Part shown: positions 1,428-45,628 of the stretch, in pieces
How the letters are laid out: the number at the start of each line of letters is the position of its first letter
Position numbering within the stretch: position 1 is the first letter of the stretch
Assembly: GCA_964016885.1 (NCBI GenBank)
Contig: OZ024742.1
Coordinates: 329,344,001 to 329,408,000, forward strand
Source of the DNA: Eledone cirrhosa
Taxonomy: Eukaryota
DNA: 64,000 nucleotides
Direction of reading: 5' to 3'
Position numbers and translations under genes: made by a program
Notes under the pieces: generated by a model
Told to the model about the DNA's origin: nothing
The model's database searches: none
What the model saw: only the letters and a program-made list of their open reading frames with translations

Positions 1428-1431
<4 letters not shown>

Positions 1432-3082
1432 ATGATATTAAATAAGTGGAAACTATATTTATAAAACCATATTTATTTTATTATGTATATTTCAAGGGCA
1501 ACCAAACAACATTGGTGCGCTTTCATCAGATAAAATACAAAGTTTGTTTTATAAATAGAGACGTACCCATGAAAGTTCTACCTTATCGGTTGGAAATTCA
1601 CTGGATAGTGGAAACATATTAGTGATTATTCAAACTTATGTGTGAATATGCAAATGAATGTGTAAATAATTGAAAAACCGTTTATATAAATGACACTGGG
1701 GAAACATAGGGAAGAAACAGAGAGATAAAAGATATTAATATTACGAGATAGATAGAAAGAAGAAATTTACAAGAGGATGAATAGAAGTCTTGTAACGTAA
1801 ATATGGGGGAATAAATTTTAAGTGTATATCTACTAATGGTACGTATATTTACTATTATTTAGTTGTTAGAATTCTTTTTAATATAACTGTTTATACTTTT
1901 TGGCACAAGGTCAGCAATTACCCAGTACATTACAGGTACTTTATTTTATCGACCCCGTAAGGATGAAAGGCAAACTTAACCTCGGCGGGATTCTTTTTAA
2001 TATAATGTTTTCTGTTATAAGTAGATAGAAAAATAAATAGATCTATATAGAAAAGTAAATATATATAGAAATTAGATAGAGAAATATATGGAAACATAAA
2101 TAGTTAGAAAAAAGATGGAAAAATAGATAGATATAAAAATAAGTAGAACAATAAATAGAAAAATAAATAGTAAAATAAATAGAAAATAAATAGTAAAATA
2201 AATAGAAAAATCAAAAAAAAATCAATAAATAGATAAAAATATAAATAGATAGATAAATGGATATATGGGTATATCGTGTTATAGATAATTGTTTTAATGA
2301 GTTATGAGGGATATTGGTTTATATTTAATGTAAGTAACAAAGTTAACTGAGTTAATAAAAATGTTTAAATTTATATATTTTAAATTGGGAAGATACGGAA
2401 AAAAACTCCAGTTTTGTTTATTTATTAGTTAGTATGAGACCATTTTATCAAAATAAGTTTCAATGTTAAAGATATAAATGTTGAAAAACATATTTAGCCT
2501 GAATTAGTTAGTGGTTATAAATCTAATAAAAGATATTAAACAATTTTTTTATTAAAAATATTTAAAAATATTAAAAATTCGTGAAAATTAAAAAACATTT
2601 TTTTTATTTAAAAAATGTTATAATCATTTTTATAAAACAATTTATAAAAACTTTATAAAAACTTTTTTTTTATATTTTATAAGAGATAAGTAGATTAAAA
2701 AAAAGTAAATTTTAACATATATGAAAGATTTAAGAAGTAAAAAATGAAAAAATAAAAAATAAAGAATTAAAATACTTAAAAAATATTAAAATTGAATTTA
2801 ATATTAAAAATTAAAATTTAAAAATTTAGGATCATATTTGTATATAATTTAAAAAATTTTAAGAAGTGAAATTATAGCAAACAATATATTACAACAGAGA
2901 GGATAAGATTGTTATTGAAATAAGTAGAAATATTACAAGTACAATTATAATTTATAATTTATATATAGTTATAAACTTTGAATTTAGGCGATGTTTACAA
3001 GAACTAAATAAATTCATTCGTACATTAATAGATTTCCTCAACACACAATTTGCAAAACCCAGATAAAACTGTGTTTACGTAG
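1428..3082 (-). repeat. Duplicated segment: copy of 5833-7486 and reverse complement of 14712-16368 (PLE1 3' end, pLTR, HHR at 1474-1537)
   Basis: Near-identical sequence, including the nested SINE fragment; it ends abruptly at tacgtag|ccaaataa. Confidence 0.95.
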
Positions 3083-4367
3083 CCAAATAACTCTGACATC
3101 ACGATAGGCTCTAGCGACTCAGCACATGTAACGGACCTGGTTTGGGCTTTTCATTCTGAAGCAGATAAAAGATGAAATCCCCTGCCTGGGCGGCGGATTA
3201 TATCGTGACGATGTTCTCTTCACAGTATATGACCACAGCACCAATATGTTGGAAGGTATGAGGAGGCGTATTCGCCATTTCTTTAAGAACTAAGGGCACA
3301 ATATAGAACTAGACCCAAATAGAAAGGTAGTTAACTTACTAGACACCACCCTAAACCTGAACACCGAACAATACTATCACTACCACAAGCCCAACGAGAA
3401 ACTCGTGTATGTTAACGCCAAGTCAAACCAACCTAGATTCATAACCAAGGCCGTGGTGAACGAGTGTCTCGGACAGAATCTCCAGCCTGTCTGCAAGTAA
3501 GGAAATCTTCGATAACAACGCGGAATATTACAACGCAGCTCTAAATAAGGCGGCACATGACCAAAATATAACATATAGTCCGAATCGCCTGGATGGGGAT
3601 GGCCCAACGGACAACCACACCCGCGTTGTGAGAGGGGGTGCTAACAAAACAGGCAGAACTGAAACAAATAGGCACCATGAGCTCGACACCACCACACGGG
3701 CGTTGATGACGAGTACGCTTAAACATGAGATGAAACCCAATATGAGTAGCAGTCTCAGGGGTGATACTAACCACTCCAAGCCCGACGACGCCAACCGCAG
3801 GACACGTTGGGGGGAGGTCACCGGGGGACCACCCCACGGTAGATCTCCCAGCGCGGGCAACGACCATCCCACAGATTCGGGCCTTGAAGATAGCAACACG
3901 CATAGCGCCCAAAGGGGAAGCAACAATGCGGGAACCACCAGCAACCCAACAAATCTCCGACAACTCACGACGCCCCCGAGCCACATATATTGGAGGAGAC
4001 ACAGAAAAATCACGTGGTAAAACCCACCCTACTCAGCGGTCGTAAAGAACATCTTGGCCCGATCATTCTTTGGAGCAGTTGATAAATGCTTCTCGAGGGA
4101 CCATAGATACCACAAGATCTTCAACAGACACACTGGGAAGCTCTCGTATTCCACCACGAGAAATCTGGCCCAACACATAGCTAGCATCAACAGGAGTAGG
4201 CTTAAACCACACACAACCAGGAGATGGCAATACAAGCACTCAGCAGAACCATATCAAAGGAGAGAAGGGAGCACCCAGTGCCCAACCAAGAAACCACCCC
4301 CCACCCCCACCCCACCGTGCCTGGGAGAAGACCACCATGTAACACCTAACGGGAACCCCAATCTAGT
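3083..4367 (+). pseudogene. Naiad-type PLE2 reverse transcriptase fragment (derived copy, shorter at the 5' end)
   Basis: DITIGSSDSAHVTDLV, GGLYRDDVL, RKITW*NPP and IFNRHTGKLSYSTTRNLAQHI motifs; stops and frameshifts present. Confidence 0.85.
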
Positions 4368-5749
4368 CCCATAAAACCGGCTGCTATTTTTAGCGCACGA
4401 GTATTGGACGCGCTAGATGCTGCTACACATGTGCGTTCAACAACACATTTCTCTCAGTCTTCTTAAGTATTTTGAAGGGAAACTTACCAATTTCTGGATA
4501 CCTGCAGAAGAGCACAGGAATAGGAAATTTCACTTAATTGTTGCGAAACAAATTTAAAATTTAAAACTTAAAATTTGTCCACGTATCTCGGCTGTTGCCA
4601 ATATAGGTTTGTTTTTATTGATTTATTATTTTAAATCGAGACAGACAAACCGTATTATTTTAATTAGTATTTTTCAATCTAGCTAACTTGGTCATTTGCA
4701 ATGAAAACAATGTATACTTGTATCAGTGTTTATCCCTATGATATATTCATTTGTATTACACGGCTCAGAAATATTCCTTTCTTTGAGCTAGTTAATTGTA
4801 AAGGACTATTTGAGTTTATAACTCCATATATAATATTCGCGGCTCCATGCGTTGAGCTAATTTTTAGTCCCATAAAACCGGCTGCTATTTTTAGCGACAC
4901 GAGTATTGGACGGGCTAGACGCTGCGACACATGTGCGTTCAACAACACATTTCTCTCAGTCTTCTTAAGTATTTTGAAATGAAACTTACCAATTTCTGGA
5001 TACCTGCAGAAGAGCACAGGAATAGAAAATTTCACTTAATTGTTGCGAAACAAATTTAAAATTTAAAATTTGTCCTGGTATCACGGCTGTTGCCAAGATA
5101 GGTTTGTTTTTATTGATTTATTATTTTAAATCGAGAGAGGCAAACCGTATTATTTTAATTAGTATTTTTCAATCTAGCTAACTTGGTCATTTGCAATGCA
5201 AACACACGTATACTTGTATCAGTGTTTATCCCTATCATATATTCATTTGTATTACACGGCTCAGAAATATTCCTTTCTTTGAGCTATTTAATTGTAAAAG
5301 ACTATTTCAGTTCATAACTCCATATATAATATTCTCGGCTCCATGCATTGAGCTAATTTTTAGTCCCATAAAACCGGCTGCTATTTTTAGCGACACGAGT
5401 ATAGGACGCGCTAGACGCTGCGACACATGTGCGTCCAACAACACATTTCTCTCAGTCTTCTTAAGTATTTTGAAGTGAAACTTACAAATTTCTGGATACC
5501 TGCAGAAGAGCACAGGAATAGGTAATTTCACTTAATTGTTGCGAAACAAATTTAAAATTTAAAATTTAAAATTTGTCCAGGTACACGGCTGTTGCCAATA
5601 TAGGTTTGTTTTTATTGATTTATTATTTTAAATCGAGACAGGCAAACCGTATCATTTTAATTAGTATTTTTCAATCTAGCTAACTTGGTCATTTGCAATG
5701 CAAACACATGTATACTTGTATCAGTGTTTATCCCTATCATATATTCATT

Positions 5750-5752
<3 letters not shown>
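4365..5752 (+). mobile_element. ~500-bp non-coding tandem repeat (~2.8 units), one HHR-like motif per unit; retrozyme-like
   Basis: Units start at ~4365, ~4866 and ~5362 (agtcccataaaaccggctgc). HHR folds at 4497-4587, 4999-5082 and 5495-5584. The array ends at a TA tract. Confidence 0.8.
5495..5584 (+). ncRNA. Hammerhead-like motif with CAGAAGA core (also 4497-4587, 4999-5082; minus-strand mirrors ~16612-16701, 17114-17197, 17609-17699)
   Basis: Stem I tacctg/caggta; core CAGAAGA; stem II gca.../...tgc; GAAA; stem III acaaattt/aaatttgt; GUC triplet. Confidence 0.7.
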
Positions 5753-5832
<80 letters not shown>

Positions 5833-5835
<3 letters not shown>

Positions 5836-8800
5836 ATGATATTAAATAAGTGGAAACTATATTTATAAAACCATATTTATTTTATTATGTATATTTCAAG
5901 GGCAACCAAACAACATTGGTGCGCTTTCATCAGATAAAATACAAAGTTTGTTTTATAAATAGAGACGTACCCATGAAAGTTCTACCTTATCGGTTGGAAA
6001 TTCACTGGATAGTGGAAACATATTAGTGATTATTCAAACTTATGTGTGAATATGCAAATGAATGTGTAAATAATTGAAAAACCGTTTATATAAATGACAC
6101 TGGGGAAACATAGGGAAGAAACAGAGAGATAAAAGATATTAATATTACGAGATAGATAGAAAGAAGAAATTTACAAGAGGATGAATAGAAGTCTTGTAAC
6201 GTAAATATGGGGAAATACATTTTAAGTTTATATCTACTAATGGTACGTATATTTACTATTATTTAGTTGTTAGAATTCTTTTTAATATAACTGTTTATAC
6301 TTTTTGGCACAAGGTCAGCAATTACCCAGTACATTACAGGTACTTTATTTTATCGACCCCGTAAGGATGAAAGGCAAACTTAACCTCGGCGGGATTCTTT
6401 TTAATATAATGTTTTCTGTTATAAGTAGATAGAAAAATAAATAGATCTATATAGAAAAGTAAATATATATAGAAATTAGATAGAGAAATATATGGAAACA
6501 TAAATAGTTAGAAAAAAGATGGAAAAATAGATAGATATAAAAATAAGTAGAACAATAAATAGAAAAATAAATAGTAAAATAAATAGAAAATAAATAGTAA
6601 AATAAATAGAAAAATCAAAAAAAAATCAATAAATAGATAAAAATATAAATAGATAGATAAATGGATATATGGGTATATCGTGTTATAGATAATTGTTTTA
6701 ATGAGTTATGAGGGATATTGGTTTATATTTAATGTAAGTAACAAAGTTAACTGAGTTAATAAAAATGTTTAAATTTATATATTTTAAATTGGGAAGATAC
6801 GGAAAAAAACTCCAGTTTTGTTTATTTATTAGTTAGTATGAGACCATTTTATCAAAATAAGTTTCAATGTTAAAGATATAAATGTTGAAAAACATATTTA
6901 GCCTGAATTAGTTAGTGGTTATAAATCTAATAAAAGATATTAAACAATTTTTTTATTAAAAATATTTAAAAATATTAAAAATTCGTGAAAATTAAAAAAC
7001 ATTTTTTTTATTTAAAAAATGTTATAATCATTTTTATAAAACAATTTATAAAAACTTTATAAAAACTTTTTTTTTATATTTTATAAGAGATAAGTAGATT
7101 AAAAAAAAGTAAATTTTAACATATATGAAAGATTTAAGAAGTAAAAAATGAAAAAATAAAAAATAAAGAATTAAAATACTTAAAAAATATTAAAATTGAA
7201 TTTAATATTAAAAATTAAAATTTAAAAATTTAGGATCATATTTGTATATAATTTAAAAAATTTTAAGAAGTGAAATTATAGCAAACAATATATTACAACA
7301 GAGAGGATAAGATTGTTATTGAAATAAGTAGAAATATTACAAGTACAATTATAATTTATAATTTATATATAGTTATAAACTTTGAATTTAGGCGATGTTT
7401 ACAAGAACTAAATAAATTCATTCGTACATTAATAGATTTCCTCAACACACAATTTGCAAAACCCAGATAAAACTGTGTTTACGTAGGCATGTGTTTCTGA
7501 AATGATTTCCCAAGTTAAAGAATAGTCCATACTTTTGGATTTTAAGTTCCATATCAGGTTTGATAGAGAAGTTGAATATTTGTTATCAAGTTTATTGAAC
7601 GAGCATTTGTGATTATTCCAACGAGTTTTAAAGTCTGTTGAAGTTGAACCTACACAATTAAATATATTATCACTGGTTTTGACTGTGCATTTATAGACCA
7701 CTTCCTTATCTAAGCACTTATTTTTTAAAGGACAGTTTGATTTAATTCTACAGTTACATTTAGCGGAGTTGATGTTATTCGGAACGGTACTATTATGTTG
7801 GATACTGCTAGAGATATTACTGCTATTTTTGTTATGGTTTCAATTTCTATTATTGATTCTATTTATATGTTGTGCTATGTTCATAGTAGTAGAGTAAGAT
7901 AGTTTTATTGTATGTCTGTTAAAGATTGAGTTGTATCTATAGGCTTTAGGAAAACATGTATCTAGCGCTTTAAAGAATAGCTTAGCTAAAGGTGTTTTAA
8001 CGCTTAATGAAAATGGAGGTGAATACCAAATCATATTTCTAGTTCTATTTCTACTGTTAGTTTAAGTTAGGTTTTTTTATTGTAATTATAATTAATGGTA
8101 GGGTTATTTGCCTTATCACTGTTGTCAATGTATTTAATCTTATTTATATAGCCTGCTCTTTTTCTTATCGTCAAAAATGTTTTTATTAGCGGAGGATCGT
8201 GAAATACGTTGTTGGATAGAATTTACAATAGTGTTCTTGATAGATCTAGGATGATTAGAGTTGACGCTTACATAGTTTAGATTCTCATTAATTTTATGGA
8301 ATGGATAGTAGAGCCCTGTGTTAAGGTTTAATGTTACGTCTAAAAAGTTAACAATGTTATAGTTATTCTCTATTTCTAACTTAAGATTGTAGCTATTCAA
8401 AAATTGTATTATTGATTTTCTTTTTCTATTAATTTCACAATTACTATGATTTTCAATTAAAAGCAGGATATCATCACGATATAAACCACCGGTCATCTCT
8501 GGTATTTTTCTATGTAGTGTATTATTAATAAATAGCCCCACACGATCCGTTATTTGCGCCGAGTCCGATGTACCCATGGTGATATCAAAATTATTTTTTC
8601 TATCAGCCCCAGTCCAGAGATGATTGTGGAATACAATTAAAGTTTTCCATTAAAATGATATGCATTTCTTCTATATATCTATTTATTTTTCTATCTACTT
8701 ATAACAGTAAACATTATATTAAAAATAATTCTAACAACTACATAATAGTAAATATAGGTACCATTAGTAGATATAAACTTAAAATTTATTCCCCCATATT

Positions 8801-9273
8801 TACGTTGCATGAGTTCTATTCATCTTCTTGTAAATTTATTCTCTCTATCTATCACGCAATATTAATATCTTTTCTCTCTCTTTTTTTCTCTCTCTCTTTC
8901 TTCCCTATCTTTCGCCAGTGTCATTTAAATAAACGGTTGTTTTTTCAATTATTTGCACATTCATTTGCATATTCACACATAAGTTTCAATAATTACTAAT
9001 ATGTTTCCACTATCCAGTGAATTTCCAACCGAAAAGGTAGAATTTTCATGGGTACGTCTCTATTTATAAAACCAACTTTGTATTTTATCTGATGAAAGAG
9101 CACCAATGTTGTCTTGGTTGCCCTTGAAATATATATAATAAAATAAATATGGTTTTATAAATATAATTTCAATTTATTTAATATCATGGAATATTTACTC
9201 CAGTAAGCTGTTGAGTGTTCTAAATCAGTTATAAACATTTATGTTTGTCAGACTTCCAACAAATTAAATACAA

Positions 9274-9276
<3 letters not shown>
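5833..9276 (-). mobile_element. Naiad-type PLE1, mirror copy of 12922-16368
   Basis: RT and GIY-YIG pieces at 7429-8577 on the minus strand. pLTRs are in inverted arrangement, with HHRs at 5878-5941 (-) and 9081-9145 (+). Confidence 0.9.
9081..9145 (+). ncRNA. Minimal type I hammerhead ribozyme in the PLE1 pLTR (also 13053-13117 -, 16257-16320 +, 1474-1537 -, 5878-5941 -)
   Basis: tattttat CTGATGA aagagcacca..tggttgccctt GAAA tatata TA ataaaata; stem III is palindromic. Confidence 0.85.
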
Positions 9277-9318
<42 letters not shown>

Positions 9319-10042
9319 GGGAGTTTTGCGTCTGTGTGAGTATGGAGGTTCGTACGTATGGTGGGTGCGTGTATATGTGTATTTCTTGTTTTAGTTGACT
9401 TACGTCTCCGAACATTCGTGTATTCATATGTAGGTATGTGTGTGCGCTTGTTATATACGTATGTATTTATTCATATACGTTTATATAATTATTTATTTGT
9501 GTACACGCATACACACACACACACATATTTATTTGTTCGTGGTTTTGTAAACCTATGGTAAGTATTTGCGTATGCTTGTGTATGTACGTATTTGTTTGCG
9601 TGTATGTATTTATTTATTTCTATTACTTCTGTATTGTATTTATTTACTTTGTTCTTAACTCTGTAGCGGAGATTCATTTGGCCTTCTAGTTAGAATTTTA
9701 GTCTACGACTTCTTCTATACCATTTACGTGGTTTTGTCTTTGCGTGCTATTGTTCTCCACGCTCCACATTGACGTATTATCTTCGTTTTTTCGTTCATTG
9801 CCAGAGAATGTCTCTATGCACCACCTAAGAGAACATTAGTCTACGACCTCTTTAATACCATAAACGTGGTTCTGTTTTTGCGCGTAATTGCTTTTCACCG
9901 CTCCTATTAATGACGTATTATTCGTTTTTTCCCGTTCTTTGCCAGCGAACGTTTCCACGAACCAAAGTATCATCTTCCTGTCTTCCTCCGGTTGCAACGT
10001 TTTTTGAAATATCCAGTTCTGCGTTTACAGATTGACTTTGTT

Positions 10043-10093
10043 AGTTTCAGAAGATCCCGTTAAGGGTGAAAGCGGCGATTCTTTGCTTAAACT
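10043..10093 (+). ncRNA. Hammerhead-like motif with CAGAAGA core in the PLE3 pLTR (also ~11688-11738 -, 21479-21529 +, 23116-23166 -, 24705-24755 +, 26191-26241 +)
   Basis: agttt CAGAAGA tccc gttaa gggt GAAA gc(a)...tgc TT aaact; it lies near the pLTR end, where the other PLEs have their HHR. Confidence 0.65.
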
Positions 10094-10109
10094 TTAATCT
10101 GTTATTTTA

Positions 10110-10156
<47 letters not shown>

Positions 10157-10161
<5 letters not shown>

Positions 10162-11648
10162 GACGTAAAATAAGAAAATTTTAAAAGTTAAATATTTACT
10201 TACTTACTAAAATGTTCACTCCAACTAATTAGTTTCTGTAATGGGATAAATATAGTTACACAATGTAACTATCCAGAATTCATTACGTCATCAAGGAGTC
10301 TATTCTCAGCTAAGTTCCCAGGCAATGCGCGGACACTAGGAACCCATATAAAAATAATAATTCAGTGGATGTAATAAGCTAGTGGGGACTAAATTCCATA
10401 GCACTGAAAATGTTCACTGCCTCTGGTCAGTGGTGGATTCTAAAGAATCAATCACGTGACACTGAGGTTAGTCAGTTAGGAGTGGGGTGATATTATGACA
10501 AGAGCCTACTACTACTACTATGAATTGGCAGTAGATTTGGCAAGTTTGCTCAACAAATAATTTGGAGATAAATATAGAGAATTAATACATCTACCAATGT
10601 ATGCGTACAGATGTACACTAATACTAGTAAATATATAAGTTATGACAAAGTACCTAGGTGGTTCAATACAGGAGGATGCAGAACAATTATATGAAAGACG
10701 TAAAATAAGAAAATCTTAAAAATTAAAAATTAACTTACTGACTAAAATTTTCACTCCAACTATTTAGTTTCTGTAATTGGATAAATATAGTTACACAATG
10801 TAACTATCGAGAATTCATTACGTCTTCGGGGAGTCTATTCTCAGCTAAGTTCCCAAAATTATTATTTTTATATGGGTTCCTAGTGTCCGCGCATTACCTG
10901 GGAACTTAGCTGAGAATAGACTTCCTGATGACGTAATGAATTCTCGATAGTTACATTGTGTAACTATATTTATCAATTACAGAAACTAATTAGTTGGAGT
11001 GAAAATGTTAGTAAGTTAATTTTTAATTTTTAAATTTTTCTTATTTTACGTCTTTCATATAAATGTTCTGCATCCCCCTGCATTGAACCACCTAGGTACT
11101 TTGACATAACTTATATATTTACTAGTATTAGTGTACATCTGTACGCATACATTGGTAGATGTATTAATTATCTATATTTATCTCCAAATTATTTGTTGAG
11201 CAAACTTGCCAAATCTACTGCCAATTCATAGTAGTAGTAGCAGGCTCTTGTCATAATACCACCCCACTCCTAACTGATAACCTCAGTGTCACGTGATTGA
11301 TTCTTTAGAATCCACCACTGACCAGAGGCAGTGAACTTTTTCAATGCTATGGAATTTAGTCCCCGCTAGCTTATTACATCCACTGAATTATTATTTTTAT
11401 ATGGGTTCCTAGTGTCCGCGCATTGCATGGGAACTTAGCTCAGAATAGACTCCTTGATGGCGTAATGAATTCTGGATAGTTACATTGTGTAACTATATTT
11501 ATCCCATTACAGAAAGTAATTAGTTGGAGTGAAAATTTTAGTAAGTTAATTTTTAATTTTTAAAATTTTCTTATTTTACGTCTTTCATATAATTGTTCGG
11601 CATCCCCCTGCATTGAACCACCTAGGTACTTTGACATAACTTATATAT
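10157..11648. mobile_element. ~530-bp non-coding HHR-bearing unit in tandem, as two oppositely oriented arrays (centre ~10857); mirror at ~21570-23060
   Basis: Period 10920->11450. HHR folds at 10920-11000 (+), ~11450-11530 (+), ~10218-10299 (-) and ~10753-10834 (-). Confidence 0.8.
10920..11000 (+). ncRNA. Type I hammerhead ribozyme with long stem II and palindromic stem III (mirror 22217-22297 -)
   Basis: acttc CTGATGA cgtaat...atagttaca/tgtaactat...attaca GAAA ctaattag TT ggagt; ACTAATTAGT is a palindrome. Confidence 0.75.
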
Positions 11649-11808
11649 AAGTACTCTAGCGCAAATATTTATTAAAATAATAGATTAAATTTAAGCAAAG
11701 AATCACTGCTTTCACCCTTAACTGGATCTTCTGAAACTAAAAATGTCAATCTGGAACGCAGAAGTAAGTATTTAAGTATTTCGAAAACGTTGCCGCCGGA
11801 GGAAAACA

Positions 11809-11891
<83 letters not shown>

Positions 11892-12852
11892 AGAGATGCT
11901 AAAACATTGGTTGTTTAGTTTGTATTGTTGGTTGATATACGACAATGAGTTGTACGCATAGATTAGTGTGGCATAAATCGATCAGAACCACAAACATTAA
12001 ACAAACTAACATGGAATCCAACTGCTAATTTAGTTGTTTTCATTTGAGGTATAGTACGTGACAGAACCATGTAGCAATATGTATGTAGATATTAATATGT
12101 TGTTAAGACATGTTGGAATGTGTTAGTGTATGAGTACATACAGCGATGTGGCTTCCGAAATGAGTTCAGGTGCGTGAAGGAGTGAACGAGAGGGTGGAGG
12201 CGGAGATAATGGTTGAATTAAAACATCGCTTTAGAAATGGCGAAATCATGATTTAATGACAGGTCTTACAACATAGAAGGAATAGAGCGCTTTCAAACAG
12301 AGCGAACAAAGACAAGAGTGAATATGGTTTATTTGGCGGCTTAAGTACCTATAATTATCATCATAGCTGTTTCCGTTGAGCACGTTTTTGCTAATTTGTT
12401 TTGCATTTCGAATCCGCAAAATTCATCGGAATAATTTTGCTACAGATGTAACCCTCCCCCTATATATATACACATATATCTAATTACATAATGGCTATCT
12501 AACAGGATCATATCAATTACATAAGTGATAATATTAAAATGCGTATATTACCAACGACGTAATTAATAGTGATGAAAGAGTTCAGAATGCTGCCTTAGTC
12601 TTCATTATTATACAAACAATGTGTAGTACATAAACCTGACTAATTACATAACCGTCGGGAAACTGTACGACGTAGAGTGCTAAATGCTACGCACAGAAAT
12701 ATAAGCGATAAATATATACCGATTGACAAATGCAAACGGACTTAATGAATCGAAACTCTTGAAAGAGAAGCTTAGGCTGGAATGGTGAATGATGGGGGCC
12801 ATAATTTTTAGGACAGGCGCATACAGCACGAAAATTAAATACAACTTATATA

Positions 12853-12921
<69 letters not shown>

Positions 12922-12924
<3 letters not shown>

Positions 12925-15900
12925 TTGTATTTAATTTGTTGGAAGTCTGACAAACATAAATGTTTATAACTGATTTAGAACACTCAACAGCTTACTGGAG
13001 TAAATATTCCATGATATTAAATAAATTGAAATTATATTTATAAAACCATATTTATTTTATTATATATATTTCAAGGGCAACCAAGACAACATTGGTGCTC
13101 TTTCATCAGATAAAATACAAAGTTGGTTTTATAAATAGAGACGTACCCATGAAAATTCTACCTTTTCGGTTGGAAATTCACTGGATAGTGGAAACATATT
13201 AGTAATTATTGAAACTTATGTGTGAATATGCAAATGAATGTGCAAATAATTGAAAAAACAACCGTTTATTTAAATGACACTGGCGAAAGATAGGGAAGAA
13301 AGAGAGAGAGAAAAAAAGAGAGAGAAAAGATATTAATATTGCGTGATAGATAGAGAGAATAAATTTACAAGAAGATGAATAGAACTCATGCAACGTAAAT
13401 ATGGGGGAATAAATTTTAAGTTTATATCTACTAATGGTACCTATATTTACTATTATGTAGTTGTTAGAATTATTTTTAATATAATGTTTACTGTTATAAG
13501 TAGATAGAAAAATAAATAGATATATAGAAGAAATGCATATCATTTTAATGGAAAACTTTAATTGTATTCCACAATCATCTCTGGACTGGGGCTGATAGAA
13601 AAAATAATTTTGATATCACCATGGGTACATCGGACTCGGCGCAAATAACGGATCGTGTGGGGCTATTTATTAATAATACACTACATAGAAAAATACCAGA
13701 GATGACCGGTGGTTTATATCGTGATGATATCCTGCTTTTAATTGAAAATCATAGTAATTGTGAAATTAATAGAAAAAGAAAATCAATAATACAATTTTTG
13801 AATAGCTACAATCTTAAGTTAGAAATAGAGAATAACTATAACATTGTTAACTTTTTAGACGTAACATTAAACCTTAACACAGGGCTCTACTATCCATTCC
13901 ATAAAATTAATGAGAATCTAAACTATGTAAGCGTCAACTCTAATCATCCTAGATCTATCAAGAACACTATTGTAAATTCTATCCAACAACGTATTTCACG
14001 ATCCTCCGCTAATAAAAACATTTTTGACGATAAGAAAAAGAGCAGGCTATATAAATAAGATTAAATACATTGACAACAGTGATAAGGCAAATAACCCTAC
14101 CATTAATTATAATTACAATAAAAAAACCTAACTTAAACTAACAGTAGAAATAGAACTAGAAATATGATTTGGTATTCACCTCCATTTTCATTAAGCGTTA
14201 AAACACCTTTAGCTAAGCTATTCTTTAAAGCGCTAGATACATGTTTTCCTAAAGCCTATAGATACAACTCAATCTTTAACAGACATACAATAAAACTATC
14301 TTACTCTACTACTATGAACATAGCACAACATATAAATAGAATCAATAATAGAAATTGAAACCATAACAAAAATAGCAGTAATATCTCTAGCAGTATCCAA
14401 CATAATAGTACCGTTCCGAATAACATCAACTCCGCTAAATGTAACTGTAGAATTAAATCAAACTGTCCTTTAAAAAATAAGTGCTTAGATAAGGAAGTGG
14501 TCTATAAATGCACAGTCAAAACCAGTGATAATATATTTAATTGTGTAGGTTCAACTTCAACAGACTTTAAAACTCGTTGGAATAATCACAAATGCTCGTT
14601 CAATAAACTTGATAACAAATATTCAACTTCTCTATCAAACCTGATATGGAACTTAAAATCCAAAAGTATGGACTATTCTTTAACTTGGGAAATCATTTCA
14701 GAAACACATGCCTACGTAAACACAGTTTTATCTGGGTTTTGCAAATTGTGTGTTGAGGAAATCTATTAATGTACGAATGAATTTATTTAGTTCTTGTAAA
14801 CATCGCCTAAATTCAAAGTTTATAACTATATATAAATTATAAATTATAATTGTACTTGTAATATTTCTACTTATTTCAATAACAATCTTATCCTCTCTGT
14901 TGTAATATATTGTTTGCTATAATTTCACTTCTTAAAATTTTTTAAATTATATACAAATATGATCCTAAATTTTTAAATTTTAATTTTTAATATTAAATTC
15001 AATTTTAATATTTTTTAAGTATTTTAATTCTTTATTTTTTATTTTTTCATTTTTTACTTCTTAAATCTTTCATATATGTTAAAATTTACTTTTTTTTAAT
15101 CTACTTATCTCTTATAAAATATAAAAAAAAAGTTTTTATAAAGTTTTTATAAATTGTTTTATAAAAATGATTATAACATTTTTTAAATAAAAAAAATGTT
15201 TTTTAATTTTCACGAATTTTTAATATTTTTAAATATTTTTAATAAAAAAATTGTTTAATATCTTTTATTAGATTTATAACCACTAACTAATTCAGGCTAA
15301 ATATGTTTTTCAACATTTATATCTTTAACATTGAAACTTATTTTGATAAAATGGTCTCATACTAACTAATAAATAAACAAAACTGGAGTTTTTTTCCGTA
15401 TCTTCCCAATTTAAAATATATAAATTTAAACATTTTTATTAACTCAGTTAACTTTGTTACTTACATTAAATATAAACCAATATCCCTCATAACTCATTAA
15501 AACAATTATCTATAACACGATATACCCATATATCCATTTATCTATCTATTTATATTTTTATCTATTTATTGATTTTTTTTTGATTTTTCTATTTATTTTA
15601 CTATTTATTTTCTATTTATTTTACTATTTATTTTTCTATTTATTGTTCTACTTATTTTTATATCTATCTATTTTTCCATCTTTTTTCTAACTATTTATGT
15701 TTCCATATATTTCTCTATCTAATTTCTATATATATTTACTTTTCTATATAGATCTATTTATTTTTCTATCTACTTATAACAGAAAACATTATATTAAAAA
15801 GAATCCCGCCGAGGTTAAGTTTGCCTTTCATCCTTACGGGGTCGATAAAATAAAGTACCTGTAATGTACTGGGTAATTGCTGACCTTGTGCCAAAAAGTA

Positions 15901-16362
15901 TAAACAGTTATATTAAAAAGAATTCTAACAACTAAATAATAGTAAATATACGTACCATTAGTAGATATAAACTTAAAATTTATTCCCCCATATTTACGTT
16001 ACAAGACTTCTATTCATCCTCTTGTAAATTTCTTCTTTCTATCTATCTCGTAATATTAATATCTTTTATCTCTCTGTTTCTTCCCTATGTTTCCCCAGTG
16101 TCATTTATATAAACGGTTTTTCAATTATTTACACATTCATTTGCATATTCACACATAAGTTTGAATAATCACTAATATGTTTCCACTATCCAGTGAATTT
16201 CCAACCGATAAGGTAGAACTTTCATGGGTACGTCTCTATTTATAAAACAAACTTTGTATTTTATCTGATGAAAGCGCACCAATGTTGTTTGGTTGCCCTT
16301 GAAATATACATAATAAAATAAATATGGTTTTATAAATATAGTTTCCACTTATTTAATATCAT

Positions 16363-16368
<6 letters not shown>
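12922..16368 (+). mobile_element. Naiad-type Penelope-like element PLE1, 5'-truncated and decayed: inverted 5' pLTR, RT and GIY-YIG remnants, direct 3' pLTR
   Basis: MGTSDSAQITD, GGLYRDD, FLDVTLNL, SNHP, IWYSPPFS, CNCRIKSNCPLKNKCL..VVYKCTV, VGSTSTDFKTRWNNH, CKLC and CKH motifs at 13560-14830. ~13008-13530 is inverted relative to ~15730-16365. TA tracts lie on both sides. Confidence 0.92.
15803..15905 (+). mobile_element. 5'-truncated SINE inside the PLE1 3' pLTR (copies ~1887-1990 and ~6291-6394)
   Basis: ttgcctttcatccttacggggtcgataaaataaagtacc core; 16-bp TSD attctttttaatataa; the corresponding site in the 5' pLTR at ~13470 is empty. Confidence 0.85.
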
Positions 16369-16446
<78 letters not shown>

Positions 16447-17829
16447 AATGAATATATGATAGGGATAAACACTGATACAAGTATACATGTGTTTGCATTG
16501 CAAATGACCAAGTTAGCTAGATTGAAAAATACTAATTAAAATGATACGGTTTGCCTGTCTCGATTTAAAATAATAAATCAATAAAAACAAACCTATATTG
16601 GCAACAGCCGTGTACCTGGACAAATTTTAAATTTTAAATTTTAAATTTGTTTCGCAACAATTAAGTGAAATTACCTATTCCTGTGCTCTTCTGCAGGTAT
16701 CCAGAAATTTGTAAGTTTCACTTCAAAATACTTAAGAAGACTGAGAGAAATGTGTTGTTGGACGCACATGTGTCGCAGCGTCTAGCGCGTCCTATACTCG
16801 TGTCGCTAAAAATAGCAGCCGGTTTTATGGGACTAAAAATTAGCTCAATGCATGGAGCCGAGAATATTATATATGGAGTTATGAACTGAAATAGTCTTTT
16901 ACAATTAAATAGCTCAAAGAAAGGAATATTTCTGAGCCGTGTAATACAAATGAATATATGATAGGGATAAACACTGATACAAGTATACGTGTGTTTGCAT
17001 TGCAAATGACCAAGTTAGCTAGATTGAAAAATACTAATTAAAATAATACGGTTTGCCTCTCTCGATTTAAAATAATAAATCAATAAAAACAAACCTATCT
17101 TGGCAACAGCCGTGATACCAGGACAAATTTTAAATTTTAAATTTGTTTCGCAACAATTAAGTGAAATTTTCTATTCCTGTGCTCTTCTGCAGGTATCCAG
17201 AAATTGGTAAGTTTCATTTCAAAATACTTAAGAAGACTGAGAGAAATGTGTTGTTGAACGCACATGTGTCGCAGCGTCTAGCCCGTCCAATACTCGTGTC
17301 GCTAAAAATAGCAGCCGGTTTTATGGGACTAAAAATTAGCTCAACGCATGGAGCCGCGAATATTATATATGGAGTTATAAACTCAAATAGTCCTTTACAA
17401 TTAACTAGCTCAAAGAAAGGAATATTTCTGAGCCGTGTAATACAAATGAATATATCATAGGGATAAACACTGATACAAGTATACATTGTTTTCATTGCAA
17501 ATGACCAAGTTAGCTAGATTGAAAAATACTAATTAAAATAATACGGTTTGTCTGTCTCGATTTAAAATAATAAATCAATAAAAACAAACCTATATTGGCA
17601 ACAGCCGAGATACGTGGACAAATTTTAAGTTTTAAATTTTAAATTTGTTTCGCAACAATTAAGTGAAATTTCCTATTCCTGTGCTCTTCTGCAGGTATCC
17701 AGAAATTGGTAAGTTTCCCTTCAAAATACTTAAGAAGACTGAGAGAAATGTGTTGTTGAACGCACATGTGTAGCAGCATCTAGCGCGTCCAATACTCGTG
17801 CGCTAAAAATAGCAGCCGGTTTTATGGGA

Positions 17830-19532
17830 CTAGATTGGGGTTCCCGTTAGGTGTTACATGGTGGTCTTCTCCCAGGCACGGTGGGGTGGGGGTGGGGGGT
17901 GGTTTCTTGGTTGGGCACTGGGTGCTCCCTTCTCTCCTTTGATATGGTTCTGCTGAGTGCTTGTATTGCCATCTCCTGGTTGTGTGTGGTTTAAGCCTAC
18001 TCCTGTTGATGCTAGCTATGTGTTGGGCCAGATTTCTCGTGGTGGAATACGAGAGCTTCCCAGTGTGTCTGTTGAAGATCTTGTGGTATCTATGGTCCCT
18101 CGAGAAGCATTTATCAACTGCTCCAAAGAATGATCGGGCCAAGATGTTCTTTACGACCGCTGAGTAGGGTGGGTTTTACCACGTGATTTTTCTGTGTCTC
18201 CTCCAATATATGTGGCTCGGGGGCGTCGTGAGTTGTCGGAGATTTGTTGGGTTGCTGGTGGTTCCCGCATTGTTGCTTCCCCTTTGGGCGCTATGCGTGT
18301 TGCTATCTTCAAGGCCCGAATCTGTGGGATGGTCGTTGCCCGCGCTGGGAGATCTACCGTGGGGTGGTCCCCCGGTGACCTCCCCCCAACGTGTCCTGCG
18401 GTTGGCGTCGTCGGGCTTGGAGTGGTTAGTATCACCCCTGAGACTGCTACTCATATTGGGTTTCATCTCATGTTTAAGCGTACTCGTCATCAACGCCCGT
18501 GTGGTGGTGTCGAGCTCATGGTGCCTATTTGTTTCAGTTCTGCCTGTTTTGTTAGCACCCCCTCTCACAACGCGGGTGTGGTTGTCCGTTGGGCCATCCC
18601 CATCCAGGCGATTCGGACTATATGTTATATTTTGGTCATGTGCCGCCTTATTTAGAGCTGCGTTGTAATATTCCGCGTTGTTATCGAAGATTTCCTTACT
18701 TGCAGACAGGCTGGAGATTCTGTCCGAGACACTCGTTCACCACGGCCTTGGTTATGAATCTAGGTTGGTTTGACTTGGCGTTAACATACACGAGTTTCTC
18801 GTTGGGCTTGTGGTAGTGATAGTATTGTTCGGTGTTCAGGTTTAGGGTGGTGTCTAGTAAGTTAACTACCTTTCTATTTGGGTCTAGTTCTATATTGTGC
18901 CCTTAGTTCTTAAAGAAATGGCGAATACGCCTCCTCATACCTTCCAACATATTGGTGCTGTGGTCATATACTGTGAAGAGAACATCGTCACGATATAATC
19001 CGCCGCCCAGGCAGGGGATTTCATCTTTTATCTGCTTCAGAATGAAAAGCCCAAACCAGGTCCGTTACATGTGCTGAGTCGCTAGAGCCTATCGTGATGT
19101 CAGAGTTATTTGGCCAATCACTCCTGGTCCAAAGGTCTCCATCTAAACAGGTTAAGGTCTTTCTTGCGGCGTGGATGATGCTCACCTCATCTCGGGTTAG
19201 GTCCGTATTGGACATCGCTAAAAATAGGGCCTTATTGAGTACTATGGGTGAGATTGAGGAATAGTAGCCTGCGATATCCAGTTGTATAAAGCTGGTCTTA
19301 CTTTTCTCATGTAGTATCTTAAACCATTCTATTACCTCTTCCGTGCATGACCATTGCTGTAATCTAGTTTTTTTCCGAAGCTTGAGCAAAATCCTATCTA
19401 TTATGCTTTTACTGACGATCCCTAGGTCAGATCTGGAGGGGGTTATTAGCCTGAGAGGGAGTTCGGACACAAAATGTGGCCTGTGATCTTTAAGGGTAAT
19501 CCGCGGCTCGCTTGGTTGGTATGGGGCAATCC

Positions 19533-19533
<1 letters not shown>
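17830..19533 (-). pseudogene. Naiad-type PLE2 RT half (source copy)
   Basis: ITLKDHRPHF, RLITPSRSDLGIVSK, QQW..TEEVIEWF, FIQLDIAGYYSSI and GLYRDD motifs. The 3' end is fused to the 500-bp tandem array. Confidence 0.9.
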
Positions 19534-19566
<33 letters not shown>

Positions 19567-19569
19567 TTT

Positions 19570-19996
19570 TGAGTTTATGTTGGTTGTATACCAACACCTC
19601 AGTATGCAGGCTGGAGCACTCGACGAAGTGCGCAGGTTGGTTTGGTTACTCCGGAGTAGTGTAAAATAAAGTTAAATAAAAGTCAAATGATTAAAATTTA
19701 GCTTCGTTTATTACTGCTATATATATTTCAGTGACAGCCATCTTTGGCTGTGACCTCTTCAGGCAATTTGAATTAGTATGACTCCAGTTCCCCAGTGAAT
19801 TAACAACCCAACAAGGAACTGGGCATATCAGAGTATTGACAATATCATACACCTAAACAACATATGTACTTGTCTATACCATACTAATTCAAACTGCCTG
19901 AAGAGGTCACAGCCAAAGATGGCTGTCACTGAAATATATATAGCAGTAATAAACGAAGCTAAATTTTAATCATTTGACTTTTATTTAACTTTATTT

Positions 19997-20000
<4 letters not shown>
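19570..20000. mobile_element. Fold-back pair of PLE2 pLTR ends, HHRs at 19713-19767 (-) and 19893-19947 (+)
   Basis: ~19662-19790 is inverted relative to ~19880-19998; the same pLTR occurs at 26280-26500. Confidence 0.85.
19893..19947 (+). ncRNA. Minimal type I hammerhead ribozyme (also 19713-19767 -, 26329-26383 -)
   Basis: actgc CTGAAGA ggtcacagcca aaga tggctgtcact GAAA tatata TA gcagt. Confidence 0.88.
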
Positions 20001-20036
<36 letters not shown>

Positions 20037-20099
20037 CGATGCTACAAACTCTGCCAAGAGTATTGCAATCGCTTATCACATTGAGATGTGTGACGCTCG

Positions 20100-20500
20100 G
20101 ATATGGCTTTTCAAGCCTGCTAGAGACTTGCACTCATTCATACACTGACGACAACTATGCATCTCCCTGGCTTGGAGTCCTGCATCAGCATCAGGTTGCC
20201 CGTGAACCCTCACAACACTGTGGAGATCATAGTTCCCTGGTTCTCATTGAACATGGCTATGACTGTGGCTCCTGAGACCAGATTTGCTCAAGCACATTTT
20301 TCCAAACTCAGGGCACTTCAATTCAATGGAGACACCGATTTTTTCGAGAGAAACACAAGGGCATTGCTGACGCACATCCCGTTTGATCTTTTCGTGCTGT
20401 ATGCGCCTGTCCTAAAAATTATGGCCCCCATCATTCACCATTCCAGCCTAAGCTTCTCTTTCAAGAGTTTCGATTCATTAAGTCCGTTTGCATTTGTCAA
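20100..20500 (-). mobile_element. RTE-clade LINE 3' fragment
   Basis: A minus frame reads ..ELKCPEFGKMCLSKSGLRSHSHSH*, resembling the C-terminal zinc finger of RTE ORFs. Confidence 0.55.
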
Positions 20501-21329
20501 TCGGTATATATTTATCGCTTATATTTCTGTGCGTAGCATTTAGCACTCTACGTCGTACAGTTTCCCGACGGTTATGTAATTAGTCAGGTTTATGTACTAC
20601 ACATTGTTTGTATAATAATGAAGACTAAGGCAGCATTCTGAACTCTTTCATCACTATTAATTACGTCGTTGGTAATATACGCATTTTAATATTATCACTT
20701 ATGTAATTGATATGATCCTGTTAGATAGCCATTATGTAATTAGATATATGTGTATATATATAGGGGGAGGGTTACATCTGTAGCAAAATTATTCCGATGA
20801 ATTTTGCGGATTCGAAATGCAAAACAAATTAGCAAAAACGTGCTCAACGGAAACAGCTATGATGATAATTATAGGTACTTAAGCCGCCAAATAAACCATA
20901 TTCACTCTTGTCTTTGTTCGCTCTGTTTGAAAGCGCTCTATTCCTTCTATGTTGTAAGACCTGTCATTAAATCATGATTTCGCCATTTCTAAAGCGATGT
21001 TTTAATTCAACCATTATCTCCGCCTCCACCCTCTCGTTCACTCCTTCACGCACCTGAACTCATTTCGGAAGCCACATCGCTGTATGTACTCATACACTAA
21101 CACATTCCAACATGTCTTAACAACATATTAATATCTACATACATATTGCTACATGGTTCTGTCACGTACTATACCTCAAATGAAAACAACTAAATTAGCA
21201 GTTGGATTCCATGTTAGTTTGTTTAATGTTTGTGGTTCTGATCGATTTATGCCACACTAATCTATGCGTACAACTCATTGTCGTATATCAACCAACAATA
21301 CAAACTAAACAACCAATGTTTTAGCATCT

Positions 21330-21408
<79 letters not shown>

Positions 21409-23055
21409 TGTTTTCCTCCGGCGGCAACGTTTTCGAAATACTTAAATACTTACTTCTGCGTGCCAGATTGACATTTTTAGTTTCAGAAGATCCAGTTAAG
21501 GGTGAAAGCAGTGATTCTTTGCTTAAATTTAATCTATTATTTTAATAAATATTTGCGCTAGAGTACTTATATATAAGTTATGTCAAAGTACCTAGGTGGT
21601 TCAATGCAGGGGGATGCCGAACAATTATATGAAAGACGTAAAATAAGAAAATTTTTAAAATTAAAAATTAACTTACTAAAATTTTCACTCCAACTAATTA
21701 CTTTCTGTAATGGGATAAATATAGTTACACAATGTAACTATCCAGAATTCATTACGCCATCAAGGAGTCTATTCTGAGCTAAGTTCCCATGCAATGCGCG
21801 GACACTAGGAACCCATATAAAAATAATAATTCAGTGGATGTAATAAGCTAGCGGGGACTAAATTCCATAGCATTGAAAAAGTTCACCGCCTCTGGTCAGT
21901 GGTGGATTCTAAAGAATCAATCACGTGACACTGAGGTTATCAGTTAGGAGTGGGGTGGTATTATGACAAGAGCCTGCTACTACTACTATGAATTGGCAGT
22001 AGATTTGGCAAGTTTGCTCAACAAATAATTTGGAGATAAATATAGATAATTAATACATCTACCAATGTATGCGTACAGATGTACACTAATACTAGTAAAT
22101 ATATAAGTTATGTCAAAGTACCTAGGTGGTTCAATGCAGGGGGATGCAGAACATTTATATGAAAGACGTAAAATAAGAAAAATTTAAAAATTAAAAATTA
22201 ACTTACTAACATTTTCACTCCAACTAATTAGTTTCTGTAATTGATAAATATAGTTACACAATGTAACTATCGAGAATTCATTACGTCATCAGGAAGTCTA
22301 TTCTCAGCTAAGTTCCCAGGTAATGCGCGGACACTAGGAACCCATATAAAAATAATAATTTTGGGAACTTAGCTGAGAATAGACTCCCCGAAGACGTAAT
22401 GAATTCTCGATAGTTACATTGTGTAACTATATTTATCCAATTACAGAAACTAAATAGTTGGAGTGAACATTTTAGTCAGTAAGTTAATTTTTAATTTTTA
22501 AGATTTTCTTATTTTACGTCTTTCATATAATTGTTCTGCATCCTCCTGTATTGAACCACCTAGGTACTTTGTCATAACTTATATATTTACTAGTATTAGT
22601 GTACATCTGTACGCATACATTGGTAGATGTATTAATTCTCTATATTTATCTCCAAATTATTTGTTGAGCAAACTTGCCAAATCTACTGCCAATTCATAGT
22701 AGTAGTAGTAGGCTCTTGTCATAATATCACCCCACTCCTAACTGACTAACCTCAGTGTCACGTGATTGATTCTTTAGAATCCACCACTGACCAGAGGCAG
22801 TGAACATTTTCAGTGCTATGGAATTTAGTCCCCACTAGCTTATTACATCCACTGAATTATTATTTTTATATGGGTTCCTAGTGTCCGCGCATTGCCTGGG
22901 AACTTAGCTGAGAATAGACTCATTGATGACGTAATGAATTCTGGATAGTTACATTGTGTAACTATATTTATCCCATTACAGAAACTAATTAGTTGGAGTG
23001 AACATTTTAGTAAGTAAGTAAATATTTAACTTTTAAAATTTTCTTATTTTACGTC

Positions 23056-23094
<39 letters not shown>

Positions 23095-23099
<5 letters not shown>

Positions 23100-24866
23100 T
23101 AAAATAACAGATTAAAGTTTAAGCAAAGAATCGCCGCTTTCACCCTTAACGGGATCTTCTGAAACTAACAAAGTCAATCTGTAAACGCAGAACTGGATAT
23201 TTCAAAAAACGTTGCAACCGGAGGAAGACAGGAAGATGATACTTTGGTTCGTGGAAACGTTCGCTGGCAAAGAACGGGAAAAAACGAATAATACGTCATT
23301 AATAGGAGCAGTGAAAAGCAATTACGCGCAAAAACAGAACCACGTTTATGGTATTAAAGAGGTCGTAGACTAATGTTCTCTTAGGTGGTGCATAGAGACA
23401 TTATCTGGCAATGAACGAAAAAACGAAGATAATACGTCAATGTGGAGCGTGGAGAACAATAGCACGCAAAGACAAAACCACGTAAATGGTATAGAAGAAG
23501 TCGTAGACTAAAATTCTAACTAGAAGGCCAAATGAATCTCCGCTACAGAGTTAAGAACAAAGTAAATAAATACAATACAGAAGTAATAGAAATAAATAAA
23601 TACATACACGCAAACAAATACGTACATACACAAGCATACGCAAATACTTACCATAGGTTTACAAAACCACGAACAAATAAATATGTGTGTGTGTGTGTAT
23701 GCGTGTACACAAATAAATAATTATATAAACGTATATGAATAAATACATACGTATATAACAAGCGCACACACATACCTACATATGAATACACGAATGTTCG
23801 GAGACGTAAGTCAACCAAAACAAGAAATACACATATACACGCACCCACCATACGTACGAACCTCCATACTCACACAGACGCAAAACTCCCGTATTCACAT
23901 AGCCAAACCCTATGTACCAGAATATATAAAAAATTATACGCCATAACAATCAAATATACGTACGAGAAGGTATACGTAACTTCACAAAACATACGGGTAA
24001 TATATACTTACCTATGCAAATAAGTAAAGGAATAAACAAAACATATACTTAGCTCCCACATCAAGACGTAAAATATCCACGTATAAATCGTACTATCCGT
24101 TAGGGTATAACGTGGGGCTGTAATACAGGAAAGTTTTGTGCAATTTATGTTTACAAGCCGAAATTGCCTCAGATTTTTTGTTTAAGATGTGGTCTGTGGC
24201 GTAGAGTATTTCCAGGGCCTCAGCGGCGCCTAGGTCACATGGTCTTATATTTCCGTTATACGATCTAGCCCTAGCTAGGATCTCCCAGTGTAACTTATAT
24301 TGGGTGTGGTTGTCTTTTAGACTCCAGATATAAGCTGAAAGTGACGTCATATTAGAAATTTAGTCTACGACTTCTGCTATACCATTTGCGTGGTTTTGTC
24401 TTTGCGTGCTATTGTTCTCCACGCTCCACATTGACGTATTATCTTCGTTTTTTCGTTCATTGACAGAGAACGTCTCTATGCACCACCTAAGAGAACATTA
24501 GTCTACGACCTCTTTTATACCATAAACGTTGTTCTGTCTTTGCGCGTAATTGCTTTTCACCGCTCCTATTAATGACGTATTATTCGTTTTTTCCCGTTCT
24601 TTGCCAGCGAACGTTTCCACAAACCAAAGTATCGTCTTCCTGTCTTCCTCCGGTTGCAACGTTTTTTGAAATATCCAGTTCTGCGTTTACAGAATGACTT
24701 TGTTAGTTTCAGAAGATCCCCTTAAGGATGAAAGCAGCGATTCTTTGCTTAAACTTTAATCTGTTATTTTAATAAATATTTGCTCTACGGTTCTTATATA
24801 TTTGATATATATCTATCCTTATCGAGCCCTCTTTGGATTTTAGTCTTCAAATTTATTATTATTACT
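23095..24866 (-). mobile_element. Naiad-type PLE3, heavily 5'-truncated: inverted 5' pLTR (24352-24866), GIY-YIG C-terminus (24093-24350), 3' UTR/pLTR
   Basis: TSLSAYIWSLKD..YKLHWEIL..CDL..E..ILNKKSE..CKH; 24352-24778 is inverted relative to 23095-23522; TA tracts on both sides. Confidence 0.85.
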
Positions 24867-28052: not shown

Positions 28053-28074
28053 TGTGTTACATAATATATATATA

Positions 28075-35732: not shown

Positions 35733-35963
35733 TGTGTGTCTGCAGATAAAATAATATGACTGATCCTGGAAATGGAAAGATAATGTAAGAATATTTAATC
35801 GATTTTCGGATCTGATTGGGCTCACAGCAAATGACTTGTATATCATCTAATCAACACCAAGGAAACATGTAATTGACAATGAATGGAGCAACATTAAAAC
35901 CATTTTGAGAAAGGCTGCTAGAGAAACGTTGAGCTTTGAAATCAGTGGTTCCCTGCAAATAAT

Positions 35964-36063
35964 TGTTTCTACTTTTGGCACAAGGCCAGCAATTACTCAA
36001 TACATTACTGGTACTTTATTTTATCGACCCCGTAAGGATGAAAGGCAAGGTTAACCTCAGCGG
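35964..36063 (-). mobile_element. 5'-truncated SINE with 17-bp TSD
   Basis: SINE core; ggttccctgcaaataat at 35947-35963 and 36064-36080. Confidence 0.85.
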
Positions 36064-36377
36064 GGTTCCCTGCAAATAATGTTATGATCACTGATGCCAT
36101 TTAGACCGAAAGACAAATTCGGTTGGAGTTGGAGGCGGTGAAACATTTTCAAAAATATTGTACATACGGCAACTACAGGATAAACCCTCTCCTCTCCAGA
36201 GCAGGGAACTTTTTAGCAAGAATAATCTTAAGATGCTTGCACATACTGCTTAGAGTTCCAATGGGAATTCCGGTCCATCAGAGGGCCTATACTCACGATA
36301 TTCTGTGCAAGACAGGTACACAGAAAAGGCAGAGAACATCAAAGACTACTTTACATAATTTGACAGTATGCATAGTG

Positions 36378-45565: not shown

Positions 45566-45602
<37 letters not shown>

Positions 45603-45628
45603 TTTATATATATATATATATATACATA

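Follow-up and report, generated by a model that had tools for sequence, protein, structure and literature searches.

Local n-jumps (10.1101/181339) and insertions attributed to break-induced replication mediated by microhomology (MM-BIR; PMC13065848) are described as rearrangements with low copy gain, breakpoints clustered on one haplotype, short overlaps, foldbacks and a return to the original DNA. The MM-BIR insertions reported there span 13 bp to 18 kb with a median overlap of 2 bp. Templated insertions made by local foldback at double-strand breaks extend from 2 to ~150 bp, most of them ~5–34 bp (PMC11724301), and TA repeats are reported as break hotspots (PMC13645644). Insertions of Penelope-like elements (PLEs) show a recognizable form of their own, with a 5′-truncated reverse transcriptase (RT) and GIY-YIG endonuclease, inverted pseudo-long terminal repeats (pLTRs), a tail at one end and a TA target (PMC8557442, PMC3846280, PMC11167929). 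Here we analyzed 64,000 nucleotides of the Eledone cirrhosa assembly GCA_964016885.1 (contig OZ024742.1, positions 329,344,001 to 329,408,000 of the forward strand; 34% GC, no N), hereafter the window, in which an 11.4 kb block at 1430–12846 repeats the adjacent PLE-bearing DNA in inverted form. We regard it as a putative further case of the known class of local n-jumps and templated inverted insertions, set in decayed repeats.

A copy map drawn from self-BLAST and global alignment of the window resolves the block into four reverse-complement copies of 12923–23894, 99.4–100% identical to their counterparts. The first-pass annotation of this DNA had proposed these four copies, and its coordinates were borne out to within a few bases. 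The left flank joins the block at a (TA)21 tract (1388–1429; junction 1). Segment 1 (1430–3082, minus strand) is the reverse complement of 14712–16364 and comprises the end of the GIY-YIG region, the 3′ untranslated region and one pLTR (pLTR B) of the element PLE1. With the TA tract included, 1388–3082 matches 14712–16406 with one substitution (private, at 1824); the segment is also a direct repeat of 5834–7486, part of segment 2. Segment 2 (3082–9275, minus strand) copies 12923–19114 and carries part of a second element (PLE2), a tandem array of 496-bp units, a TA tract and PLE1 in full. Its alignment, 3082–9317 against 12881–19114, has two substitutions (private, at 6213 and 6218) and a 2-nt TA length difference. 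After a further (TA)21 tract (9276–9317; junction 3), segment 3 (9315–12834, minus strand) copies 20389–23894 with eight substitutions and three dinucleotide-repeat length differences, 11889–12834 being exact. Segment 4 (12832–12846, minus strand), a foldback arm of 15–16 nt, copies 12923–12937 and overlaps segment 3 by three nucleotides (TTT); the alignment of 12832–12870 with 12899–12937 has no mismatch. It abuts the pivot, a (TA)38 tract at 12847–12922 with one interruption at 12871.

Read on the minus strand from the pivot, the order is TA, 12923–12937, 20389–23894, TA (42 nt), 12923–19114, 14712–16364, TA (42 nt) and left flank. All four segments are co-oriented, and all templates lie within the adjacent 11 kb. 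The assembly implies copy numbers of 3-2-3-2-1-2-1 along 12923–24000, and 19115–20388 is the only uncopied, single-copy part of the source interval. The block is the most similar long pair in the window, other pairs above 150 bp being only 69–98% alike. It is not a mirror palindrome, symmetry around the pivot being limited to ~16 nt.

On sequence evidence the right side is the source, because PLE homology and elements run across the right-hand breaks and across none of the left-hand junctions. The tblastn queries were 53 PLE-like proteins of at least 630 aa, drawn from among the matches listed (120 of 184 relatives; 738 candidates) for a stop-free piece of PLE1. In the right-hand DNA, 49 high-scoring segment pairs (HSPs) span 14712 and 53 span 19114, each by more than 30 nt on both sides; with the same queries none spans 3082, 9315 or 12833. 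No HSP of these queries spans the source breaks at 20389 and 23894, where the evidence is of other kinds. Break 23894 falls inside an element, between 96%-identical direct repeats (23092–23519 and 24352–24779). Break 20389 falls inside a stop-free, 55-aa C2H2-zinc-finger-like frame that spans it by ~22 nt; as evidence it is the weakest of the four source breaks. The earlier assignment of the right-hand copies as the source held, and local duplication from them by template switching is supported.

We favor, at roughly even confidence, a real and recent insertion as the origin of the block. In this reading, DNA repair synthesis would have turned back on itself within the (TA)38 tract at 12847–12922 before switching templates locally. 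A (TA)n repeat is its own reverse complement. For this reason a minus-strand 3′ end, released by a break or stalled fork in the TA tract, could pair with its own tract or invade that of the sister in reverse; possible triggers are cruciform cleavage and a nick by PLE endonuclease, which are indistinguishable here. On the minus-strand template, 12923–12937 would be copied, followed by a jump via TTT to 20389–23894 and a return to TA via TAT. Within that episode or, more probably, during a later one, synthesis would copy 12923–19114, slip back to 14712 and run on to the TA tract at 16365. The nascent TA would finally anneal to that of the left flank, exit via a TA tract restoring the chromosome. 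The shared orientation and the confinement to 11 kb would both follow from the use of a single template strand. The TA tract at 9276–9317 is likely the boundary between two inferred episodes. The sequence does not reveal which way synthesis ran. A hybrid course, in which PLE endonuclease breaks the DNA and host polymerases copy it, is counted within this reading. In either case the block would be a repair scar without function of its own.

Several features accord with repair synthesis. The insert adjoins its source and returns to a TA tract, and the assembly has the copy gain from nearby DNA with clustered breakpoints. The presumed break site is capable of folding back, the pivot being predicted to form a 36-bp hairpin within a 114-nt DNA fold (−22.5 kcal/mol). 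Like local n-jumps and other chromoanasynthesis (fork stalling and template switching, FoSTeS, and MM-BIR) and their duplication-triplication and inverted-duplication (DUP-TRP/INV-DUP) relatives, the block combines a 1-2-3 copy staircase and clustered breakpoints with 1–3 nt overlaps, a foldback and a return to the original DNA, as described for those systems (10.1101/181339; PMC13065848). It differs from them in that its pieces all share one orientation, in that entry and exit both use (TA)n palindromy, and in its setting, a repeat-rich, non-cancer genome where it is known from the assembly alone. The short inverted arm at the pivot followed by capture of another end resembles the foldback insertions of PMC11724301, and segment 4 falls within their usual size range. 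In contrast to those insertions, the block adds three tracts of 1.7–6.2 kb.

Also in favor of this reading, TA tracts occupy three of the five junctions. Three of the eight source end points are edges of the two longest TA tracts, and TA tracts make up 228 of the 11,048 bp of the source interval. At the two non-repetitive junctions the overlap measures 1 nt (at 3082) and 3 nt (TTT, at 12833), and the copy at 9315 ends in CCCGTAT, followed by the 42-nt TA tract. Upstream of 3082 there is an ungapped 12/20 match (P 0.005), but this was the best of 12 tests.

Segments 2 and 4 had been said to end at the very tip of the PLE1 pLTR tail, which pointed to priming by PLE RT. The two do share that base, but copy-source matches pass the tail into the TA tract, to 12881 for segment 2 and 12899 for segment 4, so that the base is equally the edge of the tract. 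Since pLTR end and TA edge are one base, this clue cannot separate RNA from DNA mechanisms. The positions that would fit insert starts at a pLTR tail or RT start site in AT-rich DNA, 12923 (twice) and 16364, are identical to TA edges. The claim that segments 1 and 2 together reproduce PLE architecture proved half right: the outline is present, but it was inherited from PLE1, because the pLTR in segment 1 is B (463/464 columns, against 435/483 for pLTR A) rather than a newly made inverted A. Judging from the architecture outlined in PMC8557442, a new PLE insertion should come with one pLTR duplicated, and in place of a newly formed identical pair the block has the inherited one, 90% alike. No target-site duplication (TSD) other than TA is visible; the flanks are only TA, where a TSD could not be seen. 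The insert adjoins its source and does not occupy an unlinked new site with a TSD.

Copies and source differ by 11 substitutions and by the length of dinucleotide repeats at four places. None of 38 homopolymer runs of at least 6 nt has an indel, and the pattern looks like divergence rather than long-read error. Eight of the substitutions fall in segment 3 (3.4 of the 11.2 kb compared; P about 0.005), all opposite 21462–23816, and together with the repeat-length differences of this segment they lie opposite 21334–23816. By comparison with in-window paralogues, five of the eight are derived on the source side and one is ambiguous; two had no paralogue in the scan. Outside the triplicated part, ~5.4 kb of source shows no substitution against its copy. 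The boundary between identical and diverged sequence lies at a (CT)40 tract (21327–21406). At the inspected sites, the differences in segment 3 are not accounted for by gene conversion from paralogues in the window, since neighboring paralogue-specific bases were not transferred. False duplication of two alleles is disfavored, most of the copy being identical to the source.

A number of observations weigh against repair synthesis as the origin of the block. The junctions were correctly described earlier as TA tracts or 1–3 nt overlaps, but the overlaps show no clear excess over chance: a shared base or more is seen in 47% of random joins in this interval, and three or more in 6.9%. No unusual hairpin was found ahead of the three stop points or at the two landing points tested (background fractions 0.35–0.66). 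The TA edges used are also the ends of PLE1, and the RNA model predicts identical end points. Local jumps of the Pan-Cancer Analysis of Whole Genomes (PCAWG) are described as randomly oriented, whereas the copies here are all co-oriented. The changes that can be polarized in segment 3 are derived on the source side in 5/5 cases (P 0.06). Moreover, the three private changes (1824, 6213 and 6218), although spread over two copies, map to a single 16-bp window of pLTR B (15970–15985; simulated P 2e-5, or 0.006 counted as two events) and match no other in-window copy. The uneven density may reflect either two separate episodes or else a mutagenic patch or mixed haplotypes. Two episodes, segments 4 and 3 first and segments 2 and 1 later, each starting and ending in TA, would explain the difference in density but leave aside the one-sidedness and the 16-bp cluster. 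For these, error-prone refilling of a resected source strand (break-induced replication at microsatellites is reported to be mutagenic over kilobases; PMC11161834) or polishing with paralogue reads could account.

A search of sequencing runs with 125 words returned six, of which three are contig sets of one sample (0.82–0.85 of words) and three are restriction site-associated DNA sequencing (RAD-seq) runs; no RNA run was among them. We compared 2830–4360, covering one of the five junctions, with the three contig sets and one RAD-seq run. The contig-set sample is possibly not the assembled individual, and contigs drop variants, so that they show presence and not absence. Junction 3082 was absent from all three contig sets (contigs only, of one sample), in each of which the single record over ~2989–3082 continues in the PLE1 source form for 41–76 letters. 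This counts against the block in that sample; however, depth over 3090–3141 was zero in all three, so that the PLE2-side source form, which must exist, was missing as well. Five RAD-seq reads were placed, none of them informative. In these runs both PLE families occur at high copy, their summed word depths reaching thousands. Contig depths (PLE1 piece 19.4, 14.4 and 27.8; exact PLE2 pieces 13, 8.5 and 8.3) give no copy number and were not used.

The first-pass annotation had listed MMBIR/FoSTeS and an assembly artefact as alternatives to a PLE-driven event, and both deserve that place. As an artefact, the block would consist of amplification or library chimeras, produced by fold-back priming at TA and a strand-displacing polymerase, or of mixed haplotypes assembled together, with polishing adding the odd substitutions. 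We consider this unlikely but give it appreciable weight because the block is without read confirmation and the library type is unstated. The substitution-free ~5.4 kb and the failure to recover junction 3082 in 3/3 contig sets of the one sample fit it, as do substitutions that are clustered and one-sided in high-copy PLE families, whose paralogue reads could bias polishing. In one data set, whole-genome amplification is reported to have made 40–50% of reads palindromic, and assemblies are reported to have gained false inverted duplications from it (PMC6218980); near-identical inverted copies within one read length are what such foldback chimeras and those of long-read libraries (PMC12870357) have in common with the block. 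Unlike them, however, the block is symmetrical around its pivot for only ~16 nt, contains co-oriented internal jumps, and differs from its source in substitutions and microsatellite lengths but not by any homopolymer indel, so that neither the mirror form nor the homopolymer errors of a chimera are found. Joins with 1–3 nt overlaps should not be producible by overlap-graph misassembly, and five switches would have to end back in the TA tract beside the flank. Foldback reads are put at ~0.55–0.6% in Oxford Nanopore genomic DNA and described as virtually absent in HiFi data (PMC12870357). A stepwise origin through simple events (inversion, tandem duplication of 14712–16364, deletion and unequal exchange at TA), or re-integration of extrachromosomal DNA, seems very improbable to us. 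The different substitution densities of segment 3 and segments 1–2 (P about 0.005) make more than one step plausible, and in formal terms segment 1 directly repeats part of segment 2; yet at least four independent events would be needed in a short time and within 11 kb, all co-oriented and leaving the source intact.

The alternative preferred earlier, with PLE RT as the copying enzyme, does not come out as the best account, given that the shared end is a TA edge, the PLE outline is inherited, the insert lies beside its source and no non-TA TSD is visible. Acting in trans, the enzyme would bind a minus-strand read-through RNA ending at the tail of the other PLE1 pLTR (pLTR A), nick the TA tract and copy with template jumps, a local multi-kb transduction that we hold to be doubtful. 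Two segments begin at the tip of the tail and another finishes at the short end of the pLTR, and the block ends coincide with pLTR ends; the families are abundant in the runs, and a single antisense read-through RNA could give all four co-oriented copies. There is biochemical precedent in an anole PLE, reported in vitro to nick and extend both strands in AT-rich DNA and to start reverse transcription at two tail-defining sites, ribozyme cleavage not being needed (PMC11167929). Rotifer Penelope pLTRs are reported to have mobilized an intron-containing host gene in trans, with antisense templates and template jumps proposed (PMC3846280). That documented mobilization, however, landed at a new site and shows a TSD, whereas the insert here lies beside its own source despite more than 70 TA tracts in the window, with no discernible TSD. 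TA edges alone give identical end points, the open reading frames (ORFs) of PLE1 to PLE3 at this locus are broken, and segment 3 is without PLE1 sequence. Moreover, segment 1 copies pLTR B and not the priming pLTR A newly inverted, and the route requires one unbroken 11-kb RNA or two long ones. In its most specific form, PLE RT and endonuclease in trans would capture nascent antisense read-through RNA at their own locus, nick TA beside the pLTR tail and write back 11 kb with template jumps, twice at one site, amounting to retrotransposon-driven local chromoanasynthesis; this we rate lower again. A literature search, judged by titles, found no direct precedent for a PLE-driven local multi-kb inverted duplication.

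If real, the block is a base-pair record of long (TA)n tracts seeding multi-kb inverted duplications in a repeat-rich animal genome, and such events could help explain the growth of these genomes and the crowding of old palindromes in the window. Older inverted pairs of 85–97% identity lie in the same window, and inverted structures therefore do arise in this genome. Were the RNA route true, PLEs would be agents of local complex rearrangement; an artefact would point to a way in which this assembly goes wrong at TA tracts. We see the block as a moderately interesting TA-pivoted example and a test case for PLE involvement.

The PLE identity given to the source elements earlier is supported. For PLE1, a textbook form by comparison with the PLE insertions introduced above, the name is based on the order of its domains and on its pLTR architecture. 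Its 5′-truncated RT and GIY-YIG ORF (13549–14766, plus strand), with in-frame stops, is continuous across 14712; RT followed by a C-terminal GIY-YIG region was recovered by tblastn (38% over 384 aa, E 8e-67, with a ~720-aa protein), the Pfam GIY-YIG and RVT_1 matches falling below cut-off. Its pLTRs are inverted, with a tail at one end only. Inverted pLTR A (12923–13529, minus strand) has a tail of ~75 nt, and pLTR B (15732–16364, plus strand) is 90% identical to it and has no tail. On either side of PLE1 stand the source interval's two longest TA tracts, 76 nt each: the pivot and a (TA)38 tract at the right end of the element (16365–16440), inside which segment 1 ends. A pattern scan places putative hammerhead-like core motifs in the pLTRs, at 13109 and 16265. 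The Rfam scan of 1–27000 gave only sub-threshold, repeat-driven matches, 41 of them at E up to 1 and none to a hammerhead. A 110-bp copy (15802–15911) of a dispersed 110–220-bp repeat family interrupts pLTR B; other members lie at 35956–36083, 37530–37742, 38927–39036, 56371–57016, 58487–58874 and 61659–61958, some in inverted pairs.

To the right of PLE1, the 496-bp tandem array (16444–17832; 2.8 copies, 94% matches) is truncated by the TA tract at 16440 and adjoins a decayed PLE2 RT with frameshifts (17831–19530, minus strand), which tblastn shows to be continuous across 19114. Two C2H2-zinc-finger-like pieces, possibly a LINE C-terminus, lie at 20079–20411 (minus strand), their frame spanning 20389. 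The label RTE for them is one that we assume; a relative of RTE sought within the window gave self matches only. An older imperfect palindrome (21403–23236, 1.8 kb, 85.6%) is built from direct and inverted ~530-bp units and may be a non-autonomous passenger of PLEs or a mosaic left by earlier template switching. The PLE3 remnant (23092–24779, minus strand) includes an endonuclease C-terminus at 24129–24395 and the direct repeats that flank break 23894. We identified no host gene in the block, and the Pfam search of 11 window ORFs gave one match, outside block and source.

Elsewhere in the window, tblastn found further decayed PLE-like RT and endonuclease fragments at 27588–28057 and 29539–30392 (minus strand) and 46942–47370 (plus strand). 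Two inverted pairs, at 19662–19998 and 63566–63995, have on both arms what the same pattern scan suggests to be a hammerhead-like core motif, with no Rfam support. A 90% inverted pair with long TA-rich ends occupies 45570–46717 and 48385–49551. An RT fragment at 42565–43191 (minus strand; Pfam RVT_1 E 8e-7, just under cut-off), in a GC-richer island at 41–44 kb, is probably a decayed LINE. In the left flank, a 98% inverted pair (1–102 and 1135–1236) surrounds a 35-bp tandem array of 14 copies (367–857), together probably a further PLE-type insertion that the edge of the window truncates.

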